Notes: generated from the sequence alone by a model not told the origin. A DNA stretch of 64,000 bases from Actinomycetes bacterium (GCA_025360225.1 JANYCN010000034.1:34063-98062), one strand, 5' to 3'. Positions 31,951 to 53,780 are shown, numbered from the stretch's first letter. Made by a program: numbers and translations.

Positions 31951-34438
31951 CGAGCGTCGCGAGCCAGATCCAGGAACGGTAGGCGGTGAGCCGCAGCGTC
32001 CCGTGTGAGGGGGCGCTGCGGCTCGTCGTGCCGAGTCGCACGCTCGCGACGCCGGCTGCGGCGAGCGAGACGTCGATCAGCCGCGGCCCCCGCCCGAGCG
32101 GGTGCCAGGCGCCGGCGATCCTGCCGCGGACGGTGCGCGTCACGAGACGCCCACCGATGCGCGCGAGGTCGACGCGGAGAAGCTCACGGCCGCGTCGGTC
32201 GCGCACGGCAAGGACCGCGAGGCAGCCACGGACGCTGGCTGCGTCGGCGTCGAGCAGGAAGGAGACCTCGAGGGTTCCCGCCCTGGTTGGCGTCGGCTCC
32301 GCAACGAAGGTCGCACGCCCACCGAGGCGGATCGTGAGCGCGGAGAGGCGGGCGCTAAGCCGCAGCGGCAGGACGACGGTGGCGGCGACGGGCGCCGACC
32401 AGTTGCCGGCAGCGTCTCGCCCGCGCACGGAGAGCACGTGTGCACCCGGCGTCCAGCCGCTCGCGTCGACCGCCGCGGCGACGACCCCCGCGACGATCGC
32501 CAGCGGGTGGTGCGCGCCGGCGCCGTCTGACCACTCGGCGGTCGCGGCATCGCCGACGGACGCCGCGAGGTGGACGCGCGCGTCACGGTCGAGCGTGACG
32601 CGCCACCCCTGCACGAGCGGTGGCGTGCGGTCGAGGAGGAACGGGACGTCGAGCGCGTCGCTCATGTTGCCCACGAGGTCGGTGGCAACGAGGTGAGCGA
32701 CGTGCTGGCCGTCGGGCAGCGAAGCGGCGTCGAACGCGACCGCCACCGGCGACCCGCTCGCGGGCGTGATCACCGCTCCGCCGGCGTCGAGCGCGAGGCT
32801 GATCGAGGCGAGGCCCGAGCCGACCTCGGTGACGTTCGCGGTGATCACGCTGGCGCCGACGAGCCCTGCCGAGAGCATCGGCGCGGTGCGGTCGACGATC
32901 ACCTGCGCGGTGTCGAGCACGCCGACGTTGCCAACGGTGTCGACGGCGAAGGCCGTGAGCGGGTAGGTGCCCTCCGCGAGCCCGGCCGGAACGTCGACGG
33001 TCGCCACCGGGCCGGCCGTCGTCACGGTGGCGCCGCGGAACGACGTCTCGAGGTGGTCGACGGCGGAGACGACGTGAGCGAGCGCCACCGCGTCGGTCGC
33101 CGTGATCGTGATCGTGCGGCCGCCGCGGGTGACGATCACCGTCGGCAGGTCGAGCACGGGCGCCGTCGTATCGCGTGCCGTCGGCAACGACGTAGCGAGG
33201 AGCGCCGCGACGTCGAGGCGGCCATAGCCGGCGCCGGGATCGGCGATCGCGGCGGCGGTCGAGCGCAGCGCCGCCGCCTGCTCGTCGGCGGTCATCCCGG
33301 CATGGCGTTGCAGCAGGACGGCGAGCGCGGCGGCGACCTGCGGCGCCGCGACGGAGGTTCCGGCAACCGGGTTCGTCACGAGGAACGGGCGGTGCGCCAC
33401 GTCGATGCCGACGGCGGGGGCGACGACGTCGGGAAACGGCGCGCTACCGCGACACGCCGACGCGTCGCCATGCCCGGAGAAGGCGGCGACGGTGGTTGCC
33501 GTCTCGAGGCCACCGACGGCGAATGCCTCAGGTAACGAGGCGGGGGAGTCCGGCACGCCGCTGTCGCCCGAGGCGAAGACCGGCAGGATGCCGGCGGCCC
33601 GTAGCGCCACGAGCGGCATCTGGTACACGGTGCCGCAGACGACGCCGGTCGAGCCCCAGGAGGCGTTGACGACGTCCGGGGCGTCGGGCGTGCGCGGGTC
33701 GCCGTCCGGGTCGAGGGCCCACTGGAGGGCAGCCGTCGTGCCACTCACGGTGTCGCTGCACTGGCTGTTGAAGATGTTCGCGGCGATCAGCGACGCGCCG
33801 GGGGCGCCTGCCGCGACGACGCCGGCAACCGAGGTGCCGTGACCGTCGCAGCCGTGCGGGGCGTAGCCATCGACCGGCGTTGTCGACGTTGCCGTCGCGT
33901 CGAACCAGTCGCTCGGACGGCCGCGATAGCGCCCGGCGGGCAGCCCGCTCAGGTCAAGGCCCGAGTCGATCACCGCCACCGTGATCCCCGTGCCGTCCGA
34001 CGGCGTCGTCGGGTCACTCCAGACGGGAGCGAACGCGTCCAGGCCGACCCAGTCAAACCCTTCCGGATGCACGGACGCACCGTCGGGCGTGATGCCTGCG
34101 ACGTCGCCGCGGCCCCGGAGAGCATCGAGGAACGAGCGACGCGCAACGACGGCGTAGCTACCGTTGATCCAGAGCACGCGGACGCTGCGCACGATCCCAT
34201 GCCGGCGACCGTTGGCGAGCGTCGCGGCGACCATCCGGCCCCGCCGAGCGAGCTGCGCGCGCAGAAGCACCTCGACGCTCGCCGCGCGCGTCTGCCGGTC
34301 GGGCGCGAACAGCAGGCGCGGAACGGAGATCGAGCGCACGTGGATGATCGCCGCGACGTACGGGTCGCTCCCCGCGACGGAGGCGCTCGCACCGGTGGCG
34401 AGGAGGATCGCCGCGGCGGCGAGCGCTCGCCGGATCAC
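31934..34438 (-). CDS. Secreted subtilisin-family (S8) serine peptidase with a long Ig-like C-terminal region
   Basis: The catalytic triad contexts are VAVIDSGLD (Asp), HGTSVAGVVAAG (His) and GTSVAAPQVAAALAVLLQ (Ser). The GTG at 34438 forms a GTGA overlap with the copCD stop. Confidence 0.85.
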   Translation of the reverse strand: MIRRALAAAAILLATGASASVAGSDPYVAAIIHVRSISVPRLLFAPDRQTRAASVEVLLRAQLARRGRMVAATLANGRRHGIVRSVRVLWINGSYAVVARRSFLDALRGRGDVAGITPDGASVHPEGFDWVGLDAFAPVWSDPTTPSDGTGITVAVIDSGLDLSGLPAGRYRGRPSDWFDATATSTTPVDGYAPHGCDGHGTSVAGVVAAGAPGASLIAANIFNSQCSDTVSGTTAALQWALDPDGDPRTPDAPDVVNASWGSTGVVCGTVYQMPLVALRAAGILPVFASGDSGVPDSPASLPEAFAVGGLETATTVAAFSGHGDASACRGSAPFPDVVAPAVGIDVAHRPFLVTNPVAGTSVAAPQVAAALAVLLQRHAGMTADEQAAALRSTAAAIADPGAGYGRLDVAALLATSLPTARDTTAPVLDLPTVIVTRGGRTITITATDAVALAHVVSAVDHLETSFRGATVTTAGPVATVDVPAGLAEGTYPLTAFAVDTVGNVGVLDTAQVIVDRTAPMLSAGLVGASVITANVTEVGSGLASISLALDAGGAVITPASGSPVAVAFDAASLPDGQHVAHLVATDLVGNMSDALDVPFLLDRTPPLVQGWRVTLDRDARVHLAASVGDAATAEWSDGAGAHHPLAIVAGVVAAAVDASGWTPGAHVLSVRGRDAAGNWSAPVAATVVLPLRLSARLSALTIRLGGRATFVAEPTPTRAGTLEVSFLLDADAASVRGCLAVLAVRDRRGRELLRVDLARIGGRLVTRTVRGRIAGAWHPLGRGPRLIDVSLAAAGVASVRLGTTSRSAPSHGTLRLTAYRSWIWLATLATRRR

Positions 34439-36165
34439 GTTGGTCGTCTCCGGCGCCAGAGCAGCAGCGCGTAGCTGATGAGACCGCCGACGCCGAGCGT
34501 CCAGGCGACCGGCGTCGAGGTCGCGGTGATCGGTGCGCGGGAGTAGGTGACGGGCGCGAGGTCGCGGACGGCGCCGCCGACGATCCACGGGGTCGTCACG
34601 GACTGGTCGGCCTGGCCGGCGCGGACGATCAGCGCGGAGAGGCGGATCGCACCTGGCTGGCGAAGCGCTAGCCCGTTCACGTCCCACTCCGTCCCCGTTC
34701 CGTGCGTGGCGGGGTACGGCGTGAAGCGCCGTCCGTCGCTGTTGACGCCGAGGGTGACGGCGGTGATCGGTCCGGGCGCGGGGTGGCGCGTCTCGAGGAC
34801 GTCGACGGCGACGAAGTTGGTGCCTGGCCGGTTCGGTTTGGCGCGGAACACGACGATCATCGTGTCGGCGTTCAGCGTCGCGATCTGCGTCGCGGCCGGC
34901 GGCGGCGGCGGGTCGGCGAAGCGCACGCCGCGGGCCGGCGCGCCAGCCGCGGCGATCCCCGCCGGCAGCAGGACGGCGACGAGCAGCAGCGCCTCGAGGG
35001 GGATCGAGCGCGCCGCGACGAGCGGTCGGCCGCGCGCGGCGTGCAGCGCACGGTTGGTGACGAGCGCGAGCGCGCCGGCGGCGACCAGCAGCAGCCCCTT
35101 CCCGAGGATCGCCGTGCCGTACACGGTCGTCAGGAGCGCGTCGACGGTGGCGACGTGGATCCCGGCGCTGACGATGCCGGTGATCGCGATCACGCCGGCG
35201 GCGGGCCCGGCGATCCAGCCGGCGCGGCGCAGCGTGGCGATGGCGTCGTCGCGCTCGCTGCTGCGTCGCAGCGCCGGCACGACGAGCAACACCATCGCGA
35301 GGACGAGGCCGATCCAGACGGCGGCGGCGGCGAGGTGCACGGCGAGGACGACCTCAGACGGCGCGCCGATCGCCGCGGCGTGCGAGCCGACGGCGCCGGC
35401 CGCCGCTGCGCCGATCGCTGCAGCCAGGGCTGCCCGAACCTGCTGGGCGCGGACGGCGGCGACGGCAGCCAGGACCAGCGCGGTGCGAAGCAGGAGCCCC
35501 TGCCCCGAGCCTGTGTCGAGCAGCACCCGGCGCAGCTCGTCGACGCCGATGCCGATCTCCGAGAGCTGGATGCTGAGCAGGCCGACGCCGGCGCCGACCG
35601 CTGCGAGCGCCACGACGGCGGTCCGACGCTGGCGGACAGCGGCGGAGGCGGGGGAGAGCAGGGCGAGCGCGAGGAGCCCGACGAGCAGCGCGATCGCCGC
35701 GAACTGCACGGCGCGAACGGTCGCCTCGAGGTAGGAGGGCGTTGGCTCCGGTGGCACGAGCGCGACGCGCGCGCGGGCCGGCACGACGTCGGTGCCGACG
35801 CCGAACTCGAGCTGGTCGCCGATCGTGTGCAGGTCGTCAGCGGAGACGGCGCGCCACACGACCTTGTACGCGCCGTGGGGGAGCGTCGGCAGCACGACGT
35901 GGACGGTGGCCTGGTCGAGGGTCGCGACGAGGCGCTTGCCGGCGCCGCTGGTCGACGCGACGACGCTGCCGTCGCTGGCGACGATCTTCACCGTGACGTA
36001 GTGCAGCACGACCGGCTGGCTGAAGTCGAGCCGCAGCTCGGGAGGCGTCGCGGCGGTCGTCGAGCCGTCGGCGGGGAGCGAGCGGATCAGCTCGGAGTGC
36101 GCCAACGCCACGGCAGGCACGACGAGCGTGATCGCGAGCGCCAGCAGGAGCGCGAGGCGCCGCAC
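34435..36165 (-). CDS. CopC-CopD fusion protein (YcnJ-like copper handling/transport) with an extra C-terminal domain and a terminal TM helix
   Basis: The signal peptide is followed by AHSELIRSLPADGSTTAATPPELRLDFSQPV...YKVVWRAVSADDLHTIGDQLEF, which is a CopC domain. Multiple hydrophobic helices follow and are CopD-like. The start lies 3 nt after the upstream stop. Confidence 0.85.
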   Translation of the reverse strand: MRRLALLLALAITLVVPAVALAHSELIRSLPADGSTTAATPPELRLDFSQPVVLHYVTVKIVASDGSVVASTSGAGKRLVATLDQATVHVVLPTLPHGAYKVVWRAVSADDLHTIGDQLEFGVGTDVVPARARVALVPPEPTPSYLEATVRAVQFAAIALLVGLLALALLSPASAAVRQRRTAVVALAAVGAGVGLLSIQLSEIGIGVDELRRVLLDTGSGQGLLLRTALVLAAVAAVRAQQVRAALAAAIGAAAAGAVGSHAAAIGAPSEVVLAVHLAAAAVWIGLVLAMVLLVVPALRRSSERDDAIATLRRAGWIAGPAAGVIAITGIVSAGIHVATVDALLTTVYGTAILGKGLLLVAAGALALVTNRALHAARGRPLVAARSIPLEALLLVAVLLPAGIAAAGAPARGVRFADPPPPPAATQIATLNADTMIVVFRAKPNRPGTNFVAVDVLETRHPAPGPITAVTLGVNSDGRRFTPYPATHGTGTEWDVNGLALRQPGAIRLSALIVRAGQADQSVTTPWIVGGAVRDLAPVTYSRAPITATSTPVAWTLGVGGLISYALLLWRRRRPT

Positions 36166-36168: not shown

Positions 36169-36678
36169 TTAGACGACCCGGATGTGCTTGATCTCGAGGT
36201 CGCCGACGAAGATGTCGAGGTAGTCGCCTCGGATCACCGTGCCGGCCGCGTTGCGGAAGATGATGTAGTAGCCCTGGCCGGCGACGAGCGTCGAGTCGCC
36301 CGGGGTGAGGGCGCGGGTGTCGAGGATCTTCGCGGCGCGTTCGTCGCCGATCAGCATCTTCACGACGGAGTGGTGGCCGACGACGGGCTCGGCCTTGAGC
36401 GGGTCGAGGATGCGGAAGCGGACGTCGATCAGGCCGTCGTCGCCGGTCAGGCCGACCTGGTAGAACTGGATGCCGTACCTCGCCTCGATGTCAGCGTGGG
36501 CGGGGATCGCGCTGGGCTTGATCGCGCCAGCAGCCGGCGCGGGCGCGGCGGTCGGGTCGGCGCTGATCGCGCGGGCGCCGATGAAGGCGCCGACGGCGAG
36601 CAGCCCGGTAACGACGATGGCCGCGATCGCTGGTCGGCGGTCGCGGCCCCGTGGGATTGGTGGTGTGTCGATGCTCAT
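36169..36678 (-). CDS. Small N-terminally anchored extracytoplasmic protein of unknown function
   Basis: It has one TM helix (PAIAAIVVTGLLAVGAFIGA) and then a ~120-aa domain containing an HH pair. It sits between the cupredoxin genes and copCD. Confidence 0.6.
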   Translation of the reverse strand: MSIDTPPIPRGRDRRPAIAAIVVTGLLAVGAFIGARAISADPTAAPAPAAGAIKPSAIPAHADIEARYGIQFYQVGLTGDDGLIDVRFRILDPLKAEPVVGHHSVVKMLIGDERAAKILDTRALTPGDSTLVAGQGYYIIFRNAAGTVIRGDYLDIFVGDLEIKHIRVV

Positions 36679-36732: not shown

Positions 36733-36742
36733 GCTGCGAGAG

Positions 36743-39700
36743 CTAGTGCGTCGAAGCGTACTGGTCGACGTACAGGGTACCGGCAGCCTTCGCGGTGCCG
36801 GTGGCTCCGAGGCTGACACGATCGACCCGCTGGGTCGCCGTGTCGATGCCGGTGAGGCTGGTGAGGGCGACGCCATCGAGCTTGACGTTGATCTCACCGG
36901 TCTTCGAGGCGTACCAGTCCACCGCGATGGTGTGGACGTCGTCGGAGACGAGCACCCAGTCACCGGTCTTGACGGTGGATCCGTCGTGGGCGGTGACGCG
37001 CAGGTACTGGCCGGTGGCGTCCGTCTTGCGCTCGAGCGTGAACACGCTCGCGGCGCCGTTGTTGCCGGCGAGGATCACCTGGGCGTCGCCACCGGTGGTG
37101 GAGCCGTTGGTGTCGAGCTTGAACGATGCGTGGTACGCGCTGACCGCGAGGTGGTCAACGTGCGTCACGGCGCCGTTCGTCACCGCGAGGCCACGCTTGC
37201 CGACGAGTGCGGCGGCCTTCGTGACCTTCACCTTGCCGCTTGCCTTCCAGCCCTTCATGCCGTTCTCGAAACCGGACGCGAAGAGCGGGCGGAAGTTGAT
37301 CAGCACGGTGAGCTTCTTGATCGGCGACCAGTTGCCGGCCATGTCACGCACCCGCACCGAGAGGGTGTGGACGCCCGACGACCAGCGGCTGACGTCGATC
37401 TGTGCCGCGAGCTTGACGACGTACCTCGTGCCCTTGATGCCGGTCACGTTGAGCGCGTTCGCCTTGCCGAGGCCCGGGTCGCTGCCTTCGAACCACTCGG
37501 CTGCGGAGAGCGCGCCGCCTGCTGCTGCGTCGGCGCCGAGGTTCTCGGTGCCGCTCAGCCGGAGGATGAAGCGCGAGGCCTTGCCGAGCTTCTTGCCAGC
37601 CTGACGGAAGGCGATCGCGCCGCCCTCCTGGGTGACCCCGGCCGGCTCGAGCGTCGGCACGAGCGGCTTCGTCGTGTCGATGATCTCCGTCGTGGAGGCG
37701 CACGAGCCCCAGTTTCCGGCCTCGTCCTGCGAGCGGGCGTAGTACTTCACGGTGAGCGTGAGGCCGTACTTGGCGCCGGCGGCAGGAGCCAACGCGGCGA
37801 CCTCGAGGTTGGCGTTGTCAATCCGCCTCCAGCCATCGGTGAAGGTGATCTGTCCGGTACTGGTGTTCCCTGTGATCCTCGCGAACTTGCCGACGTCCGT
37901 ACCGACGGTGGAACTCGTGATCGCGATGGTGTTGGGCGTCGCCAGGTTTTGAAGCAGGTTCGGGCTCCACTTGCCAGCCTTGCCGCTGTCGGTGATCGAG
38001 GTCGCCGTGCTGCTCGAGATACCACCGGCCATCACCGAGATGAACCGGTTCAGGTCGGCGAGCGGGATGTACGCGAAGCGTCGCTCGGAGAGCGGGTTGA
38101 CCTGGGTGACGCCGTCGAAGTCGAACCGGGTGCCAGCCGGGTTCAGTGCGCTGCACATCGCCGGCTGGGCTGCGGAGCTGACGTCCTGCCAGGCACCGAC
38201 GACGTCGGCAACGTGCGAGCTGGTGTCGACGGCGCTTGCGTAGGCGCGGACGTAGTACTGGTTGATGTCGTAGCCGAGCGTGCCGTTGTTCCAGCCGACG
38301 GCGATGCCGCCGTTCGGATGTGTTGCGTCGGCCGGAAGGCGCTGCTGGAGGGCCTTCAGCGGATCGACGTCGAACGAGGTGGTCGGCCCGGTCGCGTCGT
38401 AGAGGAACGTTGCGGTGCCGACATCGTTCAGCGTGGCGTCCGTCGTGCTCGTCGTGTTGCCGAGCGCGTCGGTGGCGGTGATCTGCACGGTGTAGGTCTG
38501 ACCGTCGGTCAACGATGTCTTGCAGTCGGCGAGCGGGATGTCGCCCTGCAGGTCGACGGACACCGCCGGGACGACGCCGATCTGCGTCACCGCACAGCTG
38601 GTGCCGAGAACCGTTGCCGTGAACGACGCGACGTCCGAGCCGCCCGTCTGGGAGTCATCGCCGGTCGCCCAGAAGTGCAGCGCCGCCGTGCCGTTCGTGA
38701 CGGGGGCGCCGAGCGAGACGCGCGTGACGTCCGGCCCGACGTTGTCGAGCATGAAGGAGATCGAGCTGACCTCGCCAGCGACGCCGCTAAACGTCGCCTG
38801 GAAGTAGATGCGATGGAGCTTCGCCCAGCCGGTCGACGGCGACGCGGACTCCTTCTGGAGGATCGTCAAGAGATCGCTGTCGGTGAGGCTGATCGAGAAC
38901 GCCCCGCCGGCAGCGGATCCGGAGACGCTGCCGCTTGCGGAGGCCGGCGTGGCGTCAACGCTCCACGCGACGGTGTCCGCGGCGCCGCCTGCTAGGCACT
39001 GGAGCGCCGAGCCGGTGACGGTCACGCCGGTGCCGGAGCTCCAGTGCGCCGCTGCCGCGGAACCGAGCGCGAGGTTCTGCACGGTCGCCTTGGCGGTCGG
39101 GCAGAGCCCTGTGGTTGACGAGCTGACGCCCGCGACCTGCAGGTACAGCGCCATGCCGAGGCCACCGAGTCCCATGTCCTTGCCCTGGTCGGCGATGACG
39201 GTGCGCTCGTCAATGGTGGTGGAGGTGATCGCGATCAGGTCGTCGGCGGTCGAGCCGCCCGGGAGGGCCTCGATCACGGCGTCGATGCCCTGGCCGAGGC
39301 CGCTCACGACGTTCGTCAGCGCGTGGGCGTCGAAGCCGACGTGGTGCTGGCGGCTGCCGAGAACGCCCATCCAGTGGTTCTCGATGCCGGCGTTGACGTA
39401 GCGCACGAGCGTCGTGCTGCCACCGGTGACAGGGACGTCGCTCGCGGTCGGCTGACCGTTCACGAGGTACCAGGAGGGATTCCAGCCGTTCGGGTCGTTC
39501 ATCTCGAAGGCGAGCGGGTCCGGCGACAGGTTCAGCGCCGGGTCGAGGTCGGAGAGCACCGCAACCTGCTCGTCGGTGAACGTTGAGGCCTCGCCGTAGA
39601 CGCCGGTTGTCGCTTCGACGACGAGCGCGCCGTAGAGGCCCATCGCGTTCTCACGCTTGCCGTTCGGCGTCGCGCCGGCGCCGTAGAGGTACGTGCCAGG

Positions 39701-40177
39701 CGCGGCGTTGACGATGCGGTACGTCGCGACGCTTCCGGGAGCGACGCCAGTGATGTCCGAGCCGCTCCGCCACGTGGTGCCGTTGTCGTGCGACCACTGC
39801 GACACCGCCTGAGGAAGCCCGAGCCCCAGCTCGCCCGCAAGCAAGCCGTTGTGAACGTTGATCGTGATCGTCACGCCGGCGGCGGCGACGATCGTCGGAC
39901 CGCCAACGCCGGTGTTGTCCGCCGGGGCTGCGCCCATCGCGAAGCGCCAGGTCGGGATGGTCAGTCCAGTTGCCGACCCGTCGGGGAGGGTGATGTGGCT
40001 GGCGCCAGCGTACAGCTCGACGGTGCAGTCAGCGGCACACTGCACCGGCAGCTTGCCGGTCGCCGTGGCGGGCGTCGAGGCGCCCGCGACCGGGACGGTG
40101 ACGACCAGCCCGGCGAGCGCGAGCGCGCCGGCCAGGATGCCGCGTCGGGCCCGGGGCCTCGTCTGGTGGTTGGTCAC
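36743..40177 (-). CDS. Tat-signal surface protein: two ligand-less cupredoxin (MCO-like) domains, Ig-like modules and a LamG/ConA-like C-terminus
   Basis: The GTG at 40177 is preceded by AGGAGA. The Tat-like signal is RARRGILAGALALAG. The MCO-fold landmarks GTYLYGAG...MGLYGALVVEA and WYLVNGQPT...LVRYVNAG are present, but the HxH and HCH copper ligands are absent. The C-terminal region, ending ...GTAKAAGTLYVDQYASTH, looks like a lectin fold. Confidence 0.75.
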   Translation of the reverse strand: MTNHQTRPRARRGILAGALALAGLVVTVPVAGASTPATATGKLPVQCAADCTVELYAGASHITLPDGSATGLTIPTWRFAMGAAPADNTGVGGPTIVAAAGVTITINVHNGLLAGELGLGLPQAVSQWSHDNGTTWRSGSDITGVAPGSVATYRIVNAAPGTYLYGAGATPNGKRENAMGLYGALVVEATTGVYGEASTFTDEQVAVLSDLDPALNLSPDPLAFEMNDPNGWNPSWYLVNGQPTASDVPVTGGSTTLVRYVNAGIENHWMGVLGSRQHHVGFDAHALTNVVSGLGQGIDAVIEALPGGSTADDLIAITSTTIDERTVIADQGKDMGLGGLGMALYLQVAGVSSSTTGLCPTAKATVQNLALGSAAAAHWSSGTGVTVTGSALQCLAGGAADTVAWSVDATPASASGSVSGSAAGGAFSISLTDSDLLTILQKESASPSTGWAKLHRIYFQATFSGVAGEVSSISFMLDNVGPDVTRVSLGAPVTNGTAALHFWATGDDSQTGGSDVASFTATVLGTSCAVTQIGVVPAVSVDLQGDIPLADCKTSLTDGQTYTVQITATDALGNTTSTTDATLNDVGTATFLYDATGPTTSFDVDPLKALQQRLPADATHPNGGIAVGWNNGTLGYDINQYYVRAYASAVDTSSHVADVVGAWQDVSSAAQPAMCSALNPAGTRFDFDGVTQVNPLSERRFAYIPLADLNRFISVMAGGISSSTATSITDSGKAGKWSPNLLQNLATPNTIAITSSTVGTDVGKFARITGNTSTGQITFTDGWRRIDNANLEVAALAPAAGAKYGLTLTVKYYARSQDEAGNWGSCASTTEIIDTTKPLVPTLEPAGVTQEGGAIAFRQAGKKLGKASRFILRLSGTENLGADAAAGGALSAAEWFEGSDPGLGKANALNVTGIKGTRYVVKLAAQIDVSRWSSGVHTLSVRVRDMAGNWSPIKKLTVLINFRPLFASGFENGMKGWKASGKVKVTKAAALVGKRGLAVTNGAVTHVDHLAVSAYHASFKLDTNGSTTGGDAQVILAGNNGAASVFTLERKTDATGQYLRVTAHDGSTVKTGDWVLVSDDVHTIAVDWYASKTGEINVKLDGVALTSLTGIDTATQRVDRVSLGATGTAKAAGTLYVDQYASTH

Positions 40178-40215
40178 GTCAGGGTCTCCTGCAGGGATGC
40201 GGGGGTTGGCGGTGG

Positions 40216-41736
40216 TCACTGTGCGCACCCCCAGTGGCCGGGCGGGTCGATGCGGTAGAGCGTGAGCATGCCGCCCATCGCCGCGCCGAAGGTCGTCGCC
40301 TCGTTCACTGCGTGGCTGTGGGCGACGTGGTAGTACTCGCCGCACTCGTTGAACGAGGTGATGCCCATCGGCAGGTCGTCCTGCTTGCCGAGGTACGGGG
40401 AGCCACCGAACCAGCTGTTGCCGACGGTGTAGCGGGTATCACGGAAGTCGTGCGTCGGCACGGGAATCGGGTTCGTCGCCGGATCCCAGCCGTGCGTGTC
40501 CTTCCAGAACCACGTGGAGTCGATCGTCTGGTTCGCGGCGATCTCGATCACGTAGTGGTTGATCGTGAGATCCGTGCCGTTCGCGACCAGCGGCGCACCG
40601 TCCACGCCGTGCACGAGCGTGTCTGCGGCGTGCGGGTGGAACGGATGGGCCGTCTCGCTGGCGTTGAAGTAGCGCACCGCGACGGGCAGCGGGTCGTAGC
40701 CGTTCAAGACGGTGTGCGGAAGTCCCAGGTTGGTCACGACGTGAGTCACAGGGTCCGTACGCGTCAACTGGGCACCGTCCGCCAGCGGCAGCACGTGGAC
40801 GAGGCCCGAGTACGGCTGGGCGGGGAGCCACTCGGCGCCGTTCGGGGCGATCGTGTCGGGCATCGAGCGCCCGTTGATGAACCAGTAGCGCGGCGTGAAC
40901 GCCGTCATCTCGTATGGCTTACCATGGTCGAGCGCCTGGTGCAGGTCAGAGTCGACGTCGCTCAGCACCTGCGCGTACTCGCGCCCGTAGCTATCGGCGA
41001 ACGTCGACGGCAGCAGCTCGGTGGTGTGGTTAAACAGCGTCGGGTTCGGACCCGTCGCATCGCTCGACGGATGGATCACGAGAGCGCCGAAGAGACCCAT
41101 CTGCTCCTGCTGGGCGGCGTTCGTGCCGCTCAGGTAGAGGAACGAGCCGGGCTTCGACGCGACGAACGAGTACGTCACCGACTGGCCAACGTCGACGGAC
41201 TGGACGGCCGACTGCAACGTCGTCGCCGGCGTGCCAGGGGCCGCTGTGTTCGTGACGATCTCCGGCTGCACCGGTGCGCCGTCCGCGGTAACCCCGGTCT
41301 GGCCGGGGAACTGGATCGACGTGCGCGGTGGCAGGGCCCCGGCGACGATCGGATCGCTGAGCGCGAGCCCGTTCGTGAGGCTGACCTTGATCGTCTCGCC
41401 CTCGTTCGCGCAGAGGAAGGGCGACGGGTAGCTGTAGTCACCCTCGTCCGATGCGTAGCCCCACATCGGAACCTGGTTGCCGTCTGGCGTGTGGATCTGG
41501 CCGTACTTCGCCGTCAGCTTGAACGTGCGGATCGTGACGCCGGTCTCGACGCTCTTCGTCCCGTTCGTGCAGACGAGCTCGTCGCTGCGGGTGAGGCTGG
41601 CCGACTTCGTGTGGCCAGGGGTCGTGAAGGCCCCGAACGCGCCTGCGGCCGTGATCGCCGCGACCGGCAGGAGCCAGATCGGGCGGACACGGCGGAGGCC
41701 GCGGCGGGGAGCGGTGGTGTTAGGTGTTCCGTCCAC
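40216..41736 (-). CDS. Two-domain multicopper-oxidase-like protein with copper ligands only in the C-terminal domain and no type-1 Cys
   Basis: The GTG at 41736 lies 9 nt after the upstream stop. The signal is PRRGLRRVRPIWLLPVAAITAAGAFG. The N-domain ends MGLFGALVIHP and has no HxH. The C-domain has AHPFHPHA (HxxHxH) and YYHVAHSHAVNE (HSH). Confidence 0.8.
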   Translation of the reverse strand: MDGTPNTTAPRRGLRRVRPIWLLPVAAITAAGAFGAFTTPGHTKSASLTRSDELVCTNGTKSVETGVTIRTFKLTAKYGQIHTPDGNQVPMWGYASDEGDYSYPSPFLCANEGETIKVSLTNGLALSDPIVAGALPPRTSIQFPGQTGVTADGAPVQPEIVTNTAAPGTPATTLQSAVQSVDVGQSVTYSFVASKPGSFLYLSGTNAAQQEQMGLFGALVIHPSSDATGPNPTLFNHTTELLPSTFADSYGREYAQVLSDVDSDLHQALDHGKPYEMTAFTPRYWFINGRSMPDTIAPNGAEWLPAQPYSGLVHVLPLADGAQLTRTDPVTHVVTNLGLPHTVLNGYDPLPVAVRYFNASETAHPFHPHAADTLVHGVDGAPLVANGTDLTINHYVIEIAANQTIDSTWFWKDTHGWDPATNPIPVPTHDFRDTRYTVGNSWFGGSPYLGKQDDLPMGITSFNECGEYYHVAHSHAVNEATTFGAAMGGMLTLYRIDPPGHWGCAQ

Positions 41737-41745
41737 GTCGTTACC

Positions 41746-43422
41746 TCAGATGCCCAGGTCGTTGGGGATGGCGATGCGCTGCGCGGCGACGGTGCCCGCG
41801 GGGTAGACGCGCACCTGGGTAGCGATACCCGTGTACACCGTTCCTCCGCCCGAGCCGTCGTTCGCGAAGTCGCGGTCGTAGAACATGTAGATGTCGGGCC
41901 CGTCAACCGCGTTGCCGGTGGAGTGCGCCGGCGCGATGAAGGTGGCGTCGTAGCTCTCACCCGGCGACACGTCGATCGTGTCCGTCGTGTAGACGTTGTT
42001 CTCGAGCCAGTCGGCGTCGCGCCCGACGACGGTGAGCGGGATGCCGTCCATCTGGAGCGAGTGGTCCTGATAGCCGAGGCAGGCGATGCGAAGCAGCACC
42101 CGCTCGCCGGGGTTGCACGTGATCAGCGAGGTGTACGGCTGGTAGGCGAGCTGCGTGTCGAGCAGGGAGTAGCTCACTGAACCCACGGCGGGGAAGCTCG
42201 GCGACCCACCCTGAATCGTGAAGGTCGTGCCCGTGTTCGCCGAGACCGTGAACGGCACGCCCCCTACGTTGGCGGTGGTGCCGACGAGCATGTTGTCGAC
42301 CCAGATCGGCAGGGGTGCGACGGCGGGCGTGATGACGGCCTGCGATGTTGCGGGCACGCCGAGAACGATCGGGTCGGCGACCGGCGCCGCCATCGTGCCG
42401 CTGCCGGAGCCGAGGTCGATGCCGACCTCGAGCACGGCGTTCGGCTTGATCGAGTCCGGGTACGAGCGCCCGTTGATCGTCCACGCGTCAGCGTGGAACT
42501 CCGACCAGTCGGGCTGCTGGATGTGCGAGAGCTTCTGGTGCTGCTGCAGGTCGTAGTCCATCAGCATGAAGGAGAACTCGCGGTTGTAGTACGTCGACCT
42601 CGGATCGGTGGGCTGGACGCCGTCGTTGTAGACGTACCTGATCGGCAGCCCGGCCACGGCACCGGCGAAGGTCGCGGCGCTCGGGAAGGTCACGTTCGAG
42701 TTCTGCTTCGGGCGGATCCAGACGGAGCCGGTCATGCCGAGCTGGATGTGCTCGACGTCCTCCCAGTGGCAGTGGTACATGTACGTGCCGGGCACCTGGC
42801 AGTCGTAGAAGTACGTGAACGTCTTGTTGATCGGTGCCGCGCCAGACATCTCCGGGACGCCGTCAAACCATGGCGTGGCGTTCTTGAAGCCGTGCCAGTG
42901 CACGGTGTGTCCGTCGGGGATGTCGGGGCGCTGCGCCCAGCCGAGGTTGTACAGCGTGATCTCGACCTGGTCGCCCTCGTCGTAGGACATGATGTACGAC
43001 GAGGTCTGGGTGAGGCCTTTCAGCCGGTAGATCTTCTGTCGTGCAGCGTCGGCGTCGCTCGACGTCGGGTCGATCTTCGCGGCCGCCACCCACTCCAGGT
43101 GCGCCGCGGTGACATCACGGAAGCCGTAGCAGTACAGGTTCTGCGGCGCTCGTGCCATGTCGTCCGGGAAGTAGACCTTCCCGTCGATCCCGGTCTGGCC
43201 CGGGCCAGGGATGTACGCCCAGCCGTCGGTGCCAGCGAGGGCGACCTGCGTCTTGACGGCGCTCGGGATGTTGGCCGCGCTCTCCCCTCCGTGCGCCGCG
43301 GCTGAGCCGGGCGCACGAAGGGTCTGGATGAGCGCTCCGGCGCCGAGGGCGCCAGCGGTGAGCCCGCCGCCGAGCTCGAGCAGCCGACGGCGGCTCATGC
43401 GCGGGTTCGAGGCGTGGGTCAC
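41746..43422 (-). CDS. Tat-exported two-domain multicopper oxidase with all its copper ligands in the N-terminal domain
   Basis: The GTG at 43422 forms a GTGA overlap with the giant gene's stop and is preceded by AAGGGGG; the ATG at 43398 is an alternative start. The Tat signal is MSRRRLLELGGG. Ligand motifs are HTVHWHG and YMYHCHWEDVEHIQLGM. The C-domain has YQDHSLQMDG in place of HxHxH. Confidence 0.85.
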   Translation of the reverse strand: MTHASNPRMSRRRLLELGGGLTAGALGAGALIQTLRAPGSAAAHGGESAANIPSAVKTQVALAGTDGWAYIPGPGQTGIDGKVYFPDDMARAPQNLYCYGFRDVTAAHLEWVAAAKIDPTSSDADAARQKIYRLKGLTQTSSYIMSYDEGDQVEITLYNLGWAQRPDIPDGHTVHWHGFKNATPWFDGVPEMSGAAPINKTFTYFYDCQVPGTYMYHCHWEDVEHIQLGMTGSVWIRPKQNSNVTFPSAATFAGAVAGLPIRYVYNDGVQPTDPRSTYYNREFSFMLMDYDLQQHQKLSHIQQPDWSEFHADAWTINGRSYPDSIKPNAVLEVGIDLGSGSGTMAAPVADPIVLGVPATSQAVITPAVAPLPIWVDNMLVGTTANVGGVPFTVSANTGTTFTIQGGSPSFPAVGSVSYSLLDTQLAYQPYTSLITCNPGERVLLRIACLGYQDHSLQMDGIPLTVVGRDADWLENNVYTTDTIDVSPGESYDATFIAPAHSTGNAVDGPDIYMFYDRDFANDGSGGGTVYTGIATQVRVYPAGTVAAQRIAIPNDLGI

Positions 43423-46400
43423 TTCGCCCCCTTCCGGTTGTTGGAGATGGACACGGTCTGCCACGCGGACACGTTCTTGCTGCGGCCGGTGGCGATCACG
43501 ACCCGCACCCGGTAGGTGCCGGCCTTCAGGTTGACGGAGACGTTGTACGTCCTCGTGCCAACCGTCATGCGGTACGAGCGAACGGTCGAGCCGACCTTGA
43601 CCTGGAGGGTCGCGGTCGATCCGGCCGAGACGGGGCTCCAGCGAAGGCCACCGATGCTGCCCACCGGGGCTGCGTGCGGGTCCTGGCTGGCGAAGCGACC
43701 GATCGCGGCCGACACCTTGAGGGTGCCGCCCTTCACGAGCGGCGCGATCCACGCGGACTTCGTGCCGCCGTTGTACTGGTCGGCGCCACGATCGTTCACT
43801 GCCGTGGCCGCTCGCGGCTCACCGTCAATGTCGGTGCCTGGAGCGAAGAAGCGCTCCCGTCCGAGAGCAGGCGGGTTGCTGCCGACGCCTGTCTGGAGAC
43901 AGTTCGTCTGCGACGTCGACAGGTAGGTGCTGGCTGGGCCAGCGCCATCCGCGACGTCGACGCACTGGACGCCGCCGCCGATCGCCGAGCTCGACTTGTA
44001 GTTCCCCATCCGGACGGACGGGAAGTCGATCGCGAGGATCGTCCCGGCGATGAAGTTCGCGTCGCCGCGGAACGGTGCGAGGATCACGCTCGTGTCGTAG
44101 GTCGCATCCTGGATGCTCGCCGGTGCGGGAACAGCCAGGAGGCTCGAGTCAGGGCTCGCACCGGCGGAGCTCGACGTGGTCGTCGTGCTGCCCTGCGGGT
44201 AGAGCGTGACGCCGTCGACCGAGCCGATGTCCCAGATCGCCGGGTTCGACGTGTCGCCCGAGAGCCCGATCCCGGTGACGATGCCACCGTTGTAGGTGCC
44301 GGCGAGGTTGCCCCAGAAGTAGTTGTTCAGGAGCGTCGGCGGCGTCGAGGCCGGGACGTTCGCGGAGCCCATCAGCACCACGCTGTTCAGCGCCGTGGAG
44401 AGACCGGCCGGGGCAGGCTGCCCGTTCGACGTCATCGCGGTGGCGGTGGTGAGGTTCTTCATGATCGTGTTGTTCGCGATCAGCAGCTTGCTCGTGTCGT
44501 CGATCGCGATGCCGCCGCCCTCGTGCGCGGAGACGTTGTTCGCGATCACGTTGTTCGTGACCTTGATCTGGTGGTTTCCGGCCATCAGGAACCGGATGCC
44601 ACCTCCATCGTCACCTGCGAGGTTCGACTGAATGACATTCGCGTCGATCGTCACCGTGCCCGAGCCAGCCGAGATGCCCGGCTGGGGCGGCAGGCCCGGG
44701 AAGAGCTTCGGGTTCGGCAGCTGGCCGGCGATGAACACGCCGGCTCCCTCGTCGTAGCTCTGGTTGAAGTAGACGCGGTTCTTCGTGATCATGCCGTTCG
44801 GCGAGAGGCCGTAGTGCGAGATGCCACCACCGTACTCGGCGGAGTAGTTACCGCAGACGACGTTGCGCTGCACCGTGTAGTCATCAGAGCCGTTGAACAG
44901 GCCCACGGCACCGGCGAGGCGGAAGCCGCCGTTCGCGTCGAGCTGGTTGTTCGCGATCGTGACGTGGTCGTTCTTCTTCGCGCTCTGTAGGAGCTCCGGC
45001 ACGTACGGCGAGCCGATCCGGATGCCGCCGCCGAGCGAGCCAGCGTTCTGGTTGATGATGTTGTTCTTGACCTCGAGGTAGTGCGCCGAGGAGGCTGCGA
45101 AGACGCCGCCACCCTGGCTCGCCGGCTGGCCGACGGCCTGCGTGCGGGCTGGCAGCGGGCCACCGCCGGTGGCGGTGTTCAGGCCACCCGGCAGCTCGAA
45201 CGACGTGCCACCGGTGAGCTGGAAGCCGTCCACGGCAGCGCGGTAGGCGCTGTTGAAGAGGCTGTTGTTACCACGCTGTCCGGTGAGCACCGTGACGACA
45301 GCGCCGTCCTGGAGCGTGTCGGTGTTCCGGATCATGCCCTGCACCCAGGTGGCGAGGTCGTACCACCACACCGCGTACGCGGTGCCGGAGCCGTCAGCGA
45401 GCGACGCGGTGCCGAACTGCGAGCCATCGATCACCGTGCCGTCCTCCGTCGTGCCGCGAAGGTTGACGTCGGAGTAGCTCGACGGGTAATCACCGCCGGC
45501 ACCGAAGCCCTGGAGCTTGATGCGCGTCGGAACGATCAGGTTCTCGAAGTAGGCGCCACGCGGGTTGATCACCGAGCGGCCACGGTTCGTCGGGTCGTAG
45601 GAGACCTCGTGCGAGCCAGGGTGCACCATGATCAGGCTCGGACGGTTGTCTAGCTGGTCGCCTGGACCGGGCGTGTTCTCGCCGAGCCCACCGATCGCGT
45701 TGGCGTCGATGTTCGCCGAGGCGTCGATCGCTGCCTGGATGCTCTTGAACTGGTTCGCGAGCGGCGCCAGGTAGCCGTTGCCTGCGCTGCCGGCGTTCGG
45801 GCCGACCTCGAAGAGGCGCGGGTTGGTCGGCGTGCCGACCGCACCGGAGCCGAGCAGGAAGATCGAGACGGCGTTGACCGCCTCCTGGTTGTTGTTGGTG
45901 TTGTCGACGTACAGCTGGTAGCTGCCCGCCGCTCCGGCCGGGACGTGCACGGTGATCAGGTTGTCGGCCGAGGCCGCCACCGAGGTCGTCGTGACGCCGG
46001 CAAGACCGGGCAGGAACTCCCACCGCTCGCCCGGCAGCGGCAGCCGCTGGCGGCCGACCGTGGTCGGATCGAGGGCGAGCGTGTTCGTGCCCGTGGTCAC
46101 GCCGGCGATCGTTGCGGTGAAGCCGGACGCCGTGCGGACCTGGCGTCCAACCATCGCCTGCACGAGCGCCGTGCCGCCATCCACCGCGACGACCATCGAG
46201 TTGTGGTCGACGGCGACCGCGTTGGCGGTAGCGGAAGCGGGAGTGCCGTCACCGGCAACCGGTGGGGTGCCCTGTGCTGCGCTGAGGAAGAGCTGGGTCG
46301 CCTGGATCCCCGGGTTGAAGGTGGCGCCCTGAGAGCTATCGATCCGGGCCGAGAACGCCTGGTCCTTGAAGTACAGGCCGGCGGGGTCGACGGTGAGGCG

Positions 46401-49400
46401 CGGGCTGATCGTCACCGACTGCGTGCCGGCGATCGAGTACGTCGCTGCACCCGACGGCGCTGGTATCGCCGGGGTGATGCCGGTCAGGCTCAGCTTGCCC
46501 GTTGCCGTCCCGGTCGAGCTGACGGTGCCCGAGATGGTGCCGGTGTAGGCGCCCGGCGCGGTGAAGCTCACGGTCGCTCCGACCGCCCCGGTAGCCGTGT
46601 ACGGCGTTGCGACGATCGCGCCGTCGATCGTGTAGGCCGCGCCCGTCGCGGGAGCGGTCGTACCGGCAAGCGTGAGCCGCGCTGGCACGGCGAAGGCCCT
46701 CGTGCCGGCACCAGCGGTGGATGGAGCGGTGTAGGCGGTGACGGTGTACGTCGCGGCGCCGACGCGGACGATCGAGCCGACCACCGCGCTCGACGTGTAG
46801 CTCTGCGAGACGTACGCGCCGTTCGTGAGCTGGGTCAGGGTGACGGTCCACGGCGTGCCAGCGGCGAGGTTGAACGTCCCGAGGATGCGGATCCCAAGCA
46901 CGTTGACGACCGTCACCGGGTAGTTGACACCGCCCGCTACGAGCGTCCCTGCCCAGCCGGTCGGGTAGCCCGGAGCGGGAATGCTGAAGGCCGCTCCGCC
47001 GGCGGCGACGGTGCCGCTCCCGTTCTTGACCCGCGACAGCGACACGTTCCAGGTCGAGCCAGCCGGCAACGTGAAGGTGCCATTGAGCGTCGAACCGCTC
47101 GCGTTCGTCGAGACGTCGTAGGTCGTGGTGCTTCCGCCGACGGTGCGGGAGATCGTTCCTGTCCAAGGCGCCGGGAAGGGGTTGACGGCACCCACGTTGA
47201 TGGTGTTCGTCGCCCCGCCGCCGCCAATGGTGACCGTTCCCGTGTACACCGCAGGAGCGACGGTGCCGCCAGCGAGCTGCTGGTAGGTGCCCGTGCCGGT
47301 CGTCGTCGGCGAGTACGCCTGCACCTGGTAGCCCTGGGTGTCGTACGACGTGACCGAGCCGGCGTAGCTGAGCACGCCGTTCTCCTCGTTCACGAGCTTC
47401 ACGCTCGGCGCGGTGCCGAACCCGATGCCCTTGACGACGAAGTCGCCGCCGGTGGCTGCCGAGGTCGCAACCTTGTCGATCGAGAACACCTGCGGCGTCA
47501 CGTTCGCGCCGGTCTTCTGCAGCATGCAGTCGGCCGGGTGGTTCGACGTTGCGCCCGCACCCTGCACCGGCGCTGCGGCCGAGGTGAGGGCGAGGTCGGT
47601 GATGTAGGAGACGCCAGGGTAGAGCTGGAAGGGCGCCGCGATCGTGCGGTACTGCGCGTTGTAGTGCTGGTTCGGCTTCGTCGGCCGCGGGTTGTAGAGC
47701 GGGTCGTTGACCGCCTTGCCGTCCGCCGTCCAGGTGCCGCCATCGTTGTAGTCGGCGTGCTTCGGGTCGGCCGTCGACGGGTCGTTCGCGACCAGGGTGT
47801 AGACCTGGGGCGAGACGCCCGACGGCGTCGGCGCGTTGATGCGGTTCGTCGTCGGCAGCATCACGCTGTAGTAGCCGTTGGCGTCCGTGACGGTCTCCGC
47901 CTGGAGACGACCCGACCAGTCGTAGAAGGAGAGCGGCATGTGCACTGCCGGCGACTTGTCGCCGTAGAACGACTCTTTCGGGTCGATCGACACGTTCAGG
48001 TCGTCGATCAGGAGGCCGAAGTGGATGCCGGGGAGCGGCGTGTTCGTGAAGAGCTCGAACGACGGTGCGACGGACTCGCTGTTGTCGACGTGCACGACCT
48101 TCGAGTCGCAGAGCGCGGCGCGCTTGCCCTCGTAGGGGCTGCCACCCGTGCCTGCGAAGGCGTCGTTGGCGATCGGGAACGACTGCGGCAGCGCGGTCTT
48201 GTTGATGTCCGTCGTCTGACCGGTCGCCGTGGCACTGACGGCCCCGTACCCGTCCGTCCCGGCTCCAAGAACATCGACCTGGCGGCTGATGCCAGAGCAC
48301 TCCTGGAAGAGGATCTTCGGCGCGTTCGGCTGGCCGACGGTATCACCGGTGTAGACGTTGATGTCCTCTTCCTTGGTGACGTTGTAGATCGCGTTGCCGT
48401 TCTTGTCGACAGGGATCTCCTCCTTGACGACGTAGTCGCCCGGCGACATCGGCACCGTGGTGCCATGCGAGGAGTCGGTGAACACGTCGGTGAGCGCGTA
48501 GTTGCCGTTCAGCTTCGCGCCCCAGTCCTTGCCGCCGTTCCCGTCCGGGATCAGACCAACCTTCGAGCCGCCGCCGATGCCCTCGACGCACTCGTGCGGC
48601 TGCGTCGCGGACTCGTTCGTTGCGAGGCCCACCGGCGTCGTCCAGGGCACGGCGTTGGTGGCGGCGGTCTCGGCGTTGAAGTGATCCTGGACGCCGGAGA
48701 AGTTGCCGTTGACGAGAGCGTTGCCGGTGCCGAGCGTGTAACCCCACTCGGCCTGCCACGGGTAGGCGACGGCGCCGCCCTTCGCGTTGAAGGTGGTGCA
48801 GTCGACCGGGCGCGCCCAGCGCTCGGTCGTGTACGCCGGGCCTGCGTCGTAAAGGTCGGGGCTCGCGGCGGTCTTGTCCTTCACGATCAGGTCGTTCTGG
48901 TTCGCCGGCACGCCCGACGGATCGAGCACCATCACCGACCCGTCCTTCGGGTCATAGAGGGTGTGTCCGGCCGCGTCCTTCGCGACCTTGAAGAGGTGCA
49001 TGCGGATTCCGGGAATGCCCGGCTGCCAGTCCTCGAGCTTCGCCTGGTCGGCCTGCGTCTCGTTGCGCGTCGTGCCGTAGGAGACGGTGCCGACGATGCC
49101 GCCGTTCTCGGTCTTCGTGTACGGCTGCTTCGCCCAGTTGATCCGGACGGCCTGCGTGATCCACGGGATCACGTTGATGTCGACCGCGCCACCGAGGTAG
49201 GTGGTTGGCTTCGCGTCGTTGCCGGACTGCACGGTGATGCCGGTGTTCTTGTAGGCGGTGTCGAAGGCCTCGAGGATCGTCCACTGGCCGATCGGGTAGA
49301 GGCCGGGCAGGTCGTAGTTGCCGTTCTGGTCGGTGAAGGTGGAGTTCGTGCCCTGCTCGAAGAGGGTGTTCTCGCGCGAGCGATGGCTGAGGAAGAAGTG

Positions 49401-51680: not shown

Positions 51681-51888
51681 GTCGTCGCATCTCCTCGGCG
51701 CATTGGGCAACTGCTCCTTCTCTTCTCGCGCGTGCGTTGTCTTGAACCGCACGGCGCGGCTCGTTTCGGGTGTGTTCGGGGCGGCCAGGACGCGTTCCGT
51801 GGCGGGCCTGAACGATCGGTTTCTCCGTCGTGGGGATAACGGAGGTCTCCGCTAACCTACATGGTTCTACCGGAAACTGTCGATGTTT

Positions 51889-53055: not shown

Positions 53056-53714
53056 TCCGAGAGGCGGTAGCCGGCCGACCTGACCGTCTCGATGCGATCC
53101 TGGCCGATCTTCCCGCGCAGCCGACGCATCGACACGTCGACGACGTTCGTGTTCGGCTGGTGCGAGTAGCCCCAGACCGCGCTGAGCAGGCGCTGACGCG
53201 AGATCGTGCGCCCACGGTTGCGCATCAGGTACTCGAGCAGGCGGAACTCGAGGCCCGTCAACACGATCGGTCCCTCGCCACCGTCGACGCGGTGCGAGCG
53301 CGTGTCGAGCACGAGACCGCCAACCTGCAGCACCTCGGCGCCGGCGTCGGTCGCCGCACGGGCCCGCTGGTGGATGCGGATCCGTTCGACGAGCTCGTCA
53401 AAGGAGAACGGCTTCACCATGTAGTCGCAGGCGCCGCCCCGCAGACCCTCGAGCTTCGTCGCGATGTCGCGCCGCGCCGAGAGGATCAGCACCGACAGGT
53501 CCGGATACTCGACCTTCAGCCGCTCGAGCACCTCGAGACCGTTCATCCCGGGCAGAGCGAGGTCGAGGATGACGAACTCGATCTCGTTGCGCGAGACCCA
53601 GGCAAGCGCCGACTCGCCGTCCGACACCGCGTCCACGACGAAGCCCTCGGCCTGCAGGCCGCTCGTGAGAAACCGCGAGATCCGGGGCTCGTCTTCAACG
53701 ACGAGGATGCGCAT
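53052..53714 (-). CDS. OmpR-family response regulator
   Basis: The receiver domain is MRILVVEDEPRISRFL...VILDLALPGMNGLEVL. The C-terminal winged helix is LTGLEFRLLEYLMRNRGRTISRQRLL...VDVSMRRLRGKI. Confidence 0.9.
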   Translation of the reverse strand: MRILVVEDEPRISRFLTSGLQAEGFVVDAVSDGESALAWVSRNEIEFVILDLALPGMNGLEVLERLKVEYPDLSVLILSARRDIATKLEGLRGGACDYMVKPFSFDELVERIRIHQRARAATDAGAEVLQVGGLVLDTRSHRVDGGEGPIVLTGLEFRLLEYLMRNRGRTISRQRLLSAVWGYSHQPNTNVVDVSMRRLRGKIGQDRIETVRSAGYRLSE

Positions 53715-53726
53715 GGGTCGTTCCTC

Positions 53727-53751
53727 GGGGTGGGGGTTGGCGGTGGGGGGG
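53727..53751 (+). other. G-run tract (GGGGTGGGGGTTGGCGGTGGGGGGG), C-rich in the response-regulator 5' leader
   Basis: I read this directly from the sequence. It lies 13 nt upstream of the ATG at 53714 on the opposite strand. Confidence 0.6.
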
Positions 53752-53780
53752 TGCCGCCAGCTCAATCCTAACGGACGATC

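Follow-up and report, generated by a model that had tools for sequence, protein, structure and literature searches.

The two-domain multicopper oxidases (2dMCOs) characterised so far have all been described as homotrimers in which every interface between subunits holds an active site, domain 1 of one chain and domain 2 of the next enclosing the trinuclear copper cluster (PMC3192119). The type-C 2dMCOs, such as the metagenomic enzyme mgLAC (structure 2zwn) and the blue copper oxidase of Nitrosomonas europaea (3g5w), have their type-1 copper site in domain 1 and carry eight His per chain, which by geometry gives three sites per trimer. Ceruloplasmin and MnxG of the Bacillus Mnx complex are single chains of six cupredoxin domains with one cluster and degenerate other interfaces; the type-1 sites of ceruloplasmin are in its even-numbered domains, and the accessory subunits MnxE and MnxF of Mnx are not multicopper oxidase (MCO) paralogs and give no cluster ligands. 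To our knowledge, the step from 2dMCO homotrimers to six-domain enzymes has been deduced only from sequence comparisons. Here we analyse a 64,000-nucleotide stretch of DNA from an Actinomycetes bacterium (GCA_025360225.1 JANYCN010000034.1:34063-98062, G+C ~70%; the whole stretch is called the window below) in which three adjacent genes encode proteins A, B and C that each contain a two-domain MCO unit, and in which the ligands are divided between the chains. We think it reasonably likely that the three form one hetero-oligomeric enzyme. Full-text searching of the literature brought up neither a heteromeric two-domain MCO nor this gene cluster. The 2dMCO Nmar_1354 of Nitrosopumilus maritimus (9cck), which is among the sequence and fold matches, has been called a 'heterotrimer', but its chains come from one gene, differ by loss of a pendant cupredoxin domain and each have a full ligand set (PMC11761707).

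The first-pass annotation of this DNA had proposed that the copper ligands of a two-domain MCO are split between A and B so that the two must pair. Its coordinates, its minus-strand assignment, every motif it quoted from the three proteins and the three N-termini with an Arg pair are found exactly in the translations, and the features concerned are as follows:

41746..43422, minus strand: protein A, 558 aa (PF07732, PF07731, PF00394)
43375..43395, minus strand: twin-arginine motif SRRRLLE of A (RR in 77/78, strict consensus in 62/78)
42892..42909, minus strand: A motif H172-T-V-H175-W-H177, the type-1 His and then the cluster HxH (81/81)
42733..42774, minus strand: A motif H217-C218-H219-W-E-D-V-E-H225-...-M230, with the Cys-His route by which electrons pass from the type-1 copper to the cluster; its acidic residues E221, D222 and E224 are invariant
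40216..41736, minus strand: protein B, 506 aa (PF07732)
40630..40638, minus strand: B motif H367-P-H369 (in PFHPHG), both His 73/73
40312..40320, minus strand: B motif H473-S-H475, each His 72/73
36743..40177, minus strand: protein C, 1144 aa (PF07732)

A, B and C are three separate open reading frames (ORFs), each with its own start codon and signal peptide, and the public assembly GCA_043763365.1 calls these same genes. The spacer between A and B is 9 nt long, with a GAGG that overlaps the stop codon, and C starts at a GTG with an AGGAG ribosome-binding site 8 nt upstream. A and B share a reading frame, with only TGA and GGT AAC GAC between them (window 41736-41748); A-B spacing varies among related loci and some of the genes overlap, so this is probably chance and not programmed read-through.

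Relatives were collected as follows: a search over 5.8 billion proteins found 1317 relatives of A, at least 1047 relatives of B were found, and a B-type profile search of 1.84 billion cluster representatives (E<=1e-30) gave 769 clusters at 50% identity. A scan for A relatives that took one genome per species gave at least 552 loci or species genomes, and the best 80 of these, with ~45% identity to the window, make up the comparative set used below; they span many orders of Actinomycetota and several classes of Chloroflexota. Counts of conserved ligands and signals are out of 81 sequences for A (78 for twin-arginine translocation (Tat) signals), 73 for B and 64 for C.

Domain 1 of A has a full type-1 site (H172, C218, H225 and M230) and four cluster His (H175, H177, H217 and H219), and all eight residues are invariant (81/81). 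They lie in HTVHWHG (residues 172-178) and YMYHCHWEDVEHIQLGM (214-230). The nearest solved relatives of A are 2zwn and 3g5w, and HTVHWHG and YHCHWEDVEHIQLGM align to HTIHWHG and YHCHVNVNEH..GM of these two type-C enzymes, the HxxHxH and HCHxxxxHxxxxM patterns matching residue for residue. Domain 2 of A (YQDHSLQMDG at 451-460) is without ligands; Q and D are found at the HSH positions of 2zwn (mostly T and D in the family), and Y515 and R517, both conserved, are found at the HDH positions of 3g5w. Nearly all of the best 120 of the 1317 A relatives likewise carry just HWH and HCH, in domain 1, and the copper-ligand Cys is the only conserved Cys of A. Five acidic residues (D167, D170, E221, D222 and E224), invariant or nearly so, flank the type-1 ligands, and in the alignment they are not present in the laccase-type 2zwn and 3g5w. 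An insertion of ~90 residues between the cupredoxin domains of A (residues ~330-425, window ~42150-42430) is common to the window protein and its nearest relatives P0002, P0004, P0010 and P0012, and most of the family is without it; P0118 (A-type) and P0122 (B-type), which are encoded on one contig, have even larger Thr/Gly-rich insertions.

B has the converse arrangement, with no ligands in domain 1 (SIQFPGQTG at 140-148, FLYLSGT at 199-205) and only the other four cluster His in domain 2 (AHPFHPHA at 363-370, YYHVAHSH at 468-475). Exactly two HxH are present in 112 of the best 120 B relatives. The Ser reported earlier in place of the type-1 Cys of B is there in the window protein, and across the family this position is Ser (57/73) or Asn (15/73) and never Cys. 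The residues that replace the ligands in domain 1 are themselves conserved, as S-I-x-F-P-G-Q and Y-x-S-G-T. An AlphaFold2 model of B has a predicted template modelling (TM) score (pTM) of 0.81, and its best fold matches are 7rab, 3gdc, 2zwn and 3g5w at TM 0.70-0.78.

In C the fold is kept and the ligands are gone, as had been claimed from the sequence: residues ~45-350 form a ligand-free two-domain MCO fold (GTYLYGAG at 161-168, MGLYGALVVEA at 179-189, LVRYVNAG at 257-264) with no conserved ligand His, and Y-E-A-G is conserved at former ligand positions. This part of the C model is confident and matches 3g5w and 2zwn at TM 0.72-0.74 (root-mean-square deviation 3.3-3.4 Å); overall, the B and C models superpose on the type-C 2dMCOs at TM 0.70-0.75. 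It is followed by several immunoglobulin-like (Ig-like) beta-sandwich modules and a C-terminal beta-sandwich. The Ig-like modules in the tail of C had been predicted correctly; the LamG-like end predicted along with them has no Pfam support even at E=1, the AlphaFold2 model having a confident beta-sandwich there, which a fold search with the whole C model, dominated by the oxidase part, left without classification. C has no predicted C-terminal membrane segment. An MCO fold without copper ligands is also known in FtsP (SufI), a non-catalytic, Tat-exported, three-domain cell-division protein that acts alone. It shares this copper-free state with C and with the empty domains of A (domain 2) and B (domain 1); it differs from C in that C is a two-domain unit that stands beside ligand-bearing paralogs and is fused to B in some lineages.

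The above observations show where the ligands are, but do the three proteins derive from one ancestor? Profile-profile comparison finds A, B and the N-terminal ~350 residues of C to be homologous over both cupredoxin domains (A with B, E=1e-33; A with C, E=7e-25; B with C, E=1e-51). The profile alignments pair DGHTVHWHG (A) with PRTSIQFPGQ (B) and GELGLGLPQ (C), YMYHCH (A) with FLYLSG (B) and YLYGAG (C), and ETAHPFHPHA (B) with YQDHSLQMDG (A) and IENHWMGVLG (C). The family alignments from the 80 loci have no conserved His at the other ligand positions, be it in domain 2 of A, in domain 1 of B or anywhere in C, and the profile alignment places the ligand-free motifs precisely at the expected ligand sites. 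A and B each have two HxH and C has none, the type-1 site is confined to A domain 1 (C has none), and the eight cluster His are complete only in A and B together. All three proteins score above the Pfam gathering threshold of the MCO superfamily, and none of them has the eight His on one chain that are typical of it; A has the domain 1 of a type-C 2dMCO and lacks the domain-2 HxH pair in the same chain. The complementary split between A domain 1 and B domain 2 thus stands (ligands 81/81 and 72-73/73), and the complementary loss is conserved across the family. Outside the ligands each of these two proteins is only ~45% conserved, and the ligand pattern is far beyond chance. We take A, B and C to be ancient paralogs of a type-C 2dMCO, and place moderate confidence in the explanation as a whole.

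In the type-C enzymes every chain brings all eight His, whereas here the His are split over two chains and the third has none, which allows at most one site per assembly. A homotrimer of A or of B would be expected to form no cluster. The His pair of the A HCH motif is useful only with a trinuclear cluster, and its retention in 81/81 sequences counts for a cluster shared with B; obligate pairing of A and B is very likely. That the residues replacing the ligands are themselves conserved suggests selection on retained copper-free interfaces. A NirK-like function was considered and rejected, since it would lead one to expect a type-2 site made of two His of domain 1 and one His from domain 2 of the neighbour, without HxH pairs, yet HxH and HCH are present in A and two HxH in B; among the sequence matches the NirK entries are only weaker ones.

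The three genes also stay side by side in the related loci. The gene order shared by essentially all of the 80 loci is a giant secreted protein, A, B, C, a membrane-anchored 169-aa protein (D169) and a CopC-CopD fusion, and the window proteins were used in phmmer searches against all ORFs of the 80 loci, a locus being eligible for a given neighbour when it has enough flank. B is found in 74/75 eligible loci (the single miss is an ORF-calling artefact), C in 65/66, D169 in 61/62, CopC-CopD in 52/59 and the giant protein directly upstream of A in 65/67 (both misses are ORF-calling artefacts); A without B was found in none of the 80 loci. The gene junctions are overlapping or short in the window and in loci L082 and L083.

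L082 and L083, which are metagenomic contigs from different samples, contain in-frame B::C fusions (P0287, 884 aa, L082:1961-4615; P0288, 1156 aa, L083:5246-8716). Each consists of a complete B, a linker of ~145 (P0287) or ~470 (P0288) residues and a C-type ligand-free two-domain unit; the linkers end in a common small Arg-rich module just before the C-type unit, and there is no Ig-like tail. The gene order is A, B::C, D169, CopC-CopD in L082, where the contig begins inside a partial gene immediately before A, and giant protein, A, B::C, D169, CopC-CopD in L083, and neither contig has a separate C gene. Gene fusions of this kind, here in two independent contigs, are classical evidence for a joint complex of B and C. 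No A::B fusion was found. Three further candidate fusions (P0161, P0316 and P0385) were rejected as frameshift or ORF-calling artefacts, their extra sequence being Arg/Pro-rich out-of-frame read-through of a kind that is seen upstream of the window C as well. In locus L084, A and B are followed by a tandem C::C' protein (P0356, L084:4112-6202, 696 aa) with two ligand-free units and a dockerin-like C-terminus. A distant relative, P0416 (745 aa), seems to have two two-domain units in one chain with several HxH in both halves, and could represent a different route to a multi-unit oxidase.

Twin-arginine signals had been assigned to all three proteins. For A this is borne out, with RR in 77/78 sequences and the strict consensus ([STGN]RRx[FL][LIFVM]) in 62/78. 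The RR strings of B and C are present in the window and are not conserved in either family (strict consensus in 1/73 and 0/64, respectively), and the signal peptides of many B and C members are plain general secretory (Sec) type signals without RR; Tat signals for B and C were therefore rejected. The related idea, that folding and cofactor loading come before export, cannot hold for the complex, since B and C are of Sec type. We suggest that A is exported folded by Tat and B and C via Sec, and export by the two routes would mean that the complex is put together, and its cluster loaded with copper, beyond the cytoplasmic membrane. B has four invariant Cys (56, 109, 465 and 504), which probably form two disulfides and are consistent with disulfide formation outside the cytoplasm. 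With assembly outside the membrane, the CopC domain encoded in the same cluster could plausibly serve as the copper donor.

The enzyme that we propose would be built as follows: A would be the catalytic subunit, its type-1 copper taking electrons from the substrate and passing them over the Cys-His bridge to the O2-reducing cluster, for which A provides four His. Domain 2 of B would supply the other four, so that a single cluster could form, and only at the A-domain-1 / B-domain-2 interface, the one interface that the ligand pattern and the 2dMCO geometry make ligand-competent. Two-domain units can close into a ring only with a third member, for which C is the obvious candidate because it has an intact type-C 2dMCO fold and natural fusions to B; the metal-free C would thus most likely close a pseudo-threefold ring of cyclic order B, A, C, in which the C-domain-2 / B-domain-1 and C-domain-1 / A-domain-2 interfaces would be copper-free. 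The complex would hold one type-1 copper and one cluster, four Cu in all, and the Ig-like tail of C would attach it to other surface components. We infer the physical pairing, the ring composition, the copper stoichiometry and the substrate, and the A-B-C ring is plausible. Such a ring would mimic the state of ceruloplasmin and MnxG, with six cupredoxin domains and one cluster. The ceruloplasmin-like topology put forward earlier holds by analogy only, as ceruloplasmin and MnxG are single chains whereas here three genes are involved, which descend from type-C enzymes and keep the type-1 site in the N-terminal domain of its unit; no chain of the window has six cupredoxin domains, and elsewhere only B::C fusions were seen.

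The enzyme would be co-expressed with the giant surface protein, the small membrane-anchored protein and the CopC-CopD fusion. According to the ORF calls and Pfam matches within the window, all genes of the row, from the regulator to the S8 protease, are on the minus strand:

53052-53765, minus strand: response regulator, OmpR-type, forming with the kinase a two-component pair that spans 51940..53765
51940-53055, minus strand: histidine kinase, two-component partner of the OmpR-type regulator
43419..51752, minus strand: giant secreted beta-helix protein, 2777 aa (Pfam beta-helix)
36169..36678, minus strand: D169, membrane-anchored, 169 aa, with one N-terminal anchor and an outer domain of ~110 aa
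34435..36165, minus strand: CopC-CopD fusion, 576 aa (PF04234; CopD part below the Pfam cutoff)
31934..34687, minus strand: S8 protease, subtilisin-like, with Ig-like (Big_13) domains; start uncertain, last in the row

Very long antisense ORFs (45945-51839 (+), 34702-36816 (+) and others, up to 1964 aa) were rejected as Arg/Gly/Asp-rich artefacts of high G+C and not genes. A 498-aa protein at 30454-31950 (+), convergent with the S8 protease gene, has weak DUF5666 and CusF-like matches and no homolog among the 80 related loci.

In the window the giant gene ends 4 nt inside the start of A, and in L082 and L083 the gene that precedes A shows the same 4-nt overlap. In the related loci the giant protein is a secreted protein of 1800-2800 aa with a C-terminal right-handed beta-helix; it is conserved at residues ~200-1450 and ~2000-2600, and residues ~1500-1900 are lineage-specific. 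Pfam gives only generic beta-helix matches to it, there is no NCBIfam or Protein Data Bank (PDB) sequence match, and it is not rich in Tyr, His or Met. D169 has no Pfam, NCBIfam or PDB match. G69, G82 and D92 of D169 are invariant and K95 and N143 nearly so, and it has no conserved His, Cys or Met; we rejected it as a YcnI-like copper protein because it has no conserved metal ligand, YcnI having the conserved His expected of a copper-binding protein.

The CopC domain of the fusion is well supported (PF04234, 59.3 bits vs a cutoff of 23.3), with H23 and H113 conserved in 46/46 and D111 in 45/46, and we take these three residues to be the expected Cu(II) site of CopC; the fusion probably binds Cu(II), judging from these residues. 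Its CopD part, with 31.3 bits vs a cutoff of 32.1 for PF05425 and 46.7 vs 195 for the NCBIfam CopD model, has several membrane segments, conserved H262 and H277 and a conserved C-terminal domain after them. The loci in which no CopC-CopD follows D169 at the score threshold used are L005, L010, L011, L025, L027, L056 and L059 (mostly Chloroflexota, one Ilumatobacteraceae), and an S8 protease homolog follows D169 in most of these seven. S8 protease homologs occur in 26/80 loci, mostly just after CopC-CopD, and two-component homologs occur near the cluster in 38-45 of the 80. In NCBIfam the regulator comes closest to the heavy-metal regulators of TIGR01387, with a score of 192.7 bits that falls short of the cutoff of 279.2, and the kinase is also below its family cutoff.

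What might such an enzyme oxidise? We favour a cell-surface metal-ion oxidase that takes part in copper handling, most likely converting Cu(I) to Cu(II), on the strength of its neighbours and of the surroundings of the type-1 site. Acidic residues near the type-1 ligands mark metal-ion substrate sites in CueO and Fet3p, and those around the type-1 site of A, absent from its laccase-type relatives, fit a cationic metal substrate. Copper delivery and uptake have both been connected with CopC homologs (PMC8689200, PMC12362106), the same CopC-CopD fusion architecture is present in YcnJ of Bacillus subtilis (PMC8689200, PMC12362106), and the copABCD-copRS operons of proteobacteria likewise place genes for CopC, CopD and a two-component system of the OmpR type beside that of an extracytoplasmic MCO (PMC8689200). 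The cop operons differ in that their CopA is a single-chain three-domain MCO, in having no counterpart of the giant beta-helix protein or of D169, and in having a CopB, which the window cluster lacks.

Several observations count against this picture, in its function or in its ring. The acidic residues of A would be no less suitable for Fe(II) or Mn(II) than for Cu(I), and there is no Met-rich segment of the kind found in cuprous oxidases. CopC-CopD is missing from 7/59 eligible loci, so that the copper permease may not be universal in the cluster. In its first ~115 residues the kinase has nothing but membrane segments, and an extracytoplasmic sensor domain is absent; copper sensing by this kinase, if it occurs, works differently from that of the CusS-type kinases. 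C is the fastest-evolving of the three proteins (~30% identity), which would fit a mere adaptor too, and L084 totals eight cupredoxin domains, which is unexplained by a simple six-domain ring. The six-domain A-B-C ring of the first-pass annotation thus gains from the fold of C and from the B::C fusions and loses by the tandem C::C' of L084.

It is possible, if on balance not probable, that the heteromer is real and its role lies outside copper handling: it might act on Fe(II) or Mn(II), or on groups of the phenolic or tyrosine kind, for instance in cross-linking or mineralising on the giant protein, and CopC-CopD would do no more than supply the enzyme with copper. The conserved giant gene and the 4-nt overlap of the upstream stop with the start of A in the three places checked would fit this, as would the carboxylate-rich type-1 surroundings, which resemble ferroxidase sites, and the seven loci without CopC-CopD. 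A copper donor would in any case be needed by an enzyme that is assembled outside the cytoplasm, and CopC homologs are linked to copper delivery (PMC8689200). However, the combination of MCO, CopC, CopD and an OmpR-type regulator mirrors the cop operons (PMC8689200), the regulator matches a heavy-metal family, though below cutoff, and the composition of the giant protein, not Tyr-, His- or Met-rich, speaks against this reading too.

We regard as rather doubtful the proposal that A and B form the catalytic heteromer with C outside the ring, as an A2B complex, a higher-order cage or a scaffold-docked A-B, C serving as adaptor that connects the enzyme with the cell wall or the giant protein. Of the three proteins C has diverged most, the L084 tandem with its dockerin-like end resembles a scaffold module, and higher-order assemblies exist, the solved 2dMCO 7rab being a dodecamer. 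Against this, a closed pseudo-threefold ring by geometric reasoning needs three units, around which A and B alone cannot alternate, and C retains the whole 2dMCO fold (TM ~0.73) and conserved residues at its former ligand positions and is tied to B by the fusions.

That there is no heteromer at all, A being a blue-copper electron carrier, B a copper binder or buffer and C an adhesin held together by shared regulation only, we consider very improbable, for while ligand-free MCO-fold proteins such as FtsP/SufI exist and the three have separate signal peptides and different export routes, what has been retained amounts exactly to one trinuclear cluster in two halves, with nothing besides, H175, H177, H217 and H219 would not have to be invariant in a protein that only carries electrons, the synteny is strict across two phyla and B::C fusions exist.

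Returning to the A-B-C enzyme, a more far-reaching form of it can be put forward only tentatively, and we think it unlikely to be right in full: the three chains would make a pseudo-symmetric heterotrimeric MCO, intermediate between the homotrimeric 2dMCOs and the six-domain oxidases, and with the giant protein, D169 and CopC-CopD would constitute an oxidase-permease system for metal uptake on single-membrane bacteria, a copper counterpart of the yeast Fet3-Ftr1 system.

The ~769 B-type clusters (50% identity) and at least as many A-type proteins are now labelled 'multicopper oxidase', and enzyme mining has to reckon with the fact that, by their ligands, none of these proteins would be expected to be active on its own. 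Their conserved association with a giant surface protein and a CopC-CopD permease suggests that Actinomycetota and Chloroflexota common in soil have a metal-handling system that is so far uncharacterised. If the A-B-C enzyme is real, it would be a widespread natural heterotrimer with one working site, two silenced interfaces and three paralogs that are sometimes partly fused, and would thus present the step to six-domain enzymes in action.

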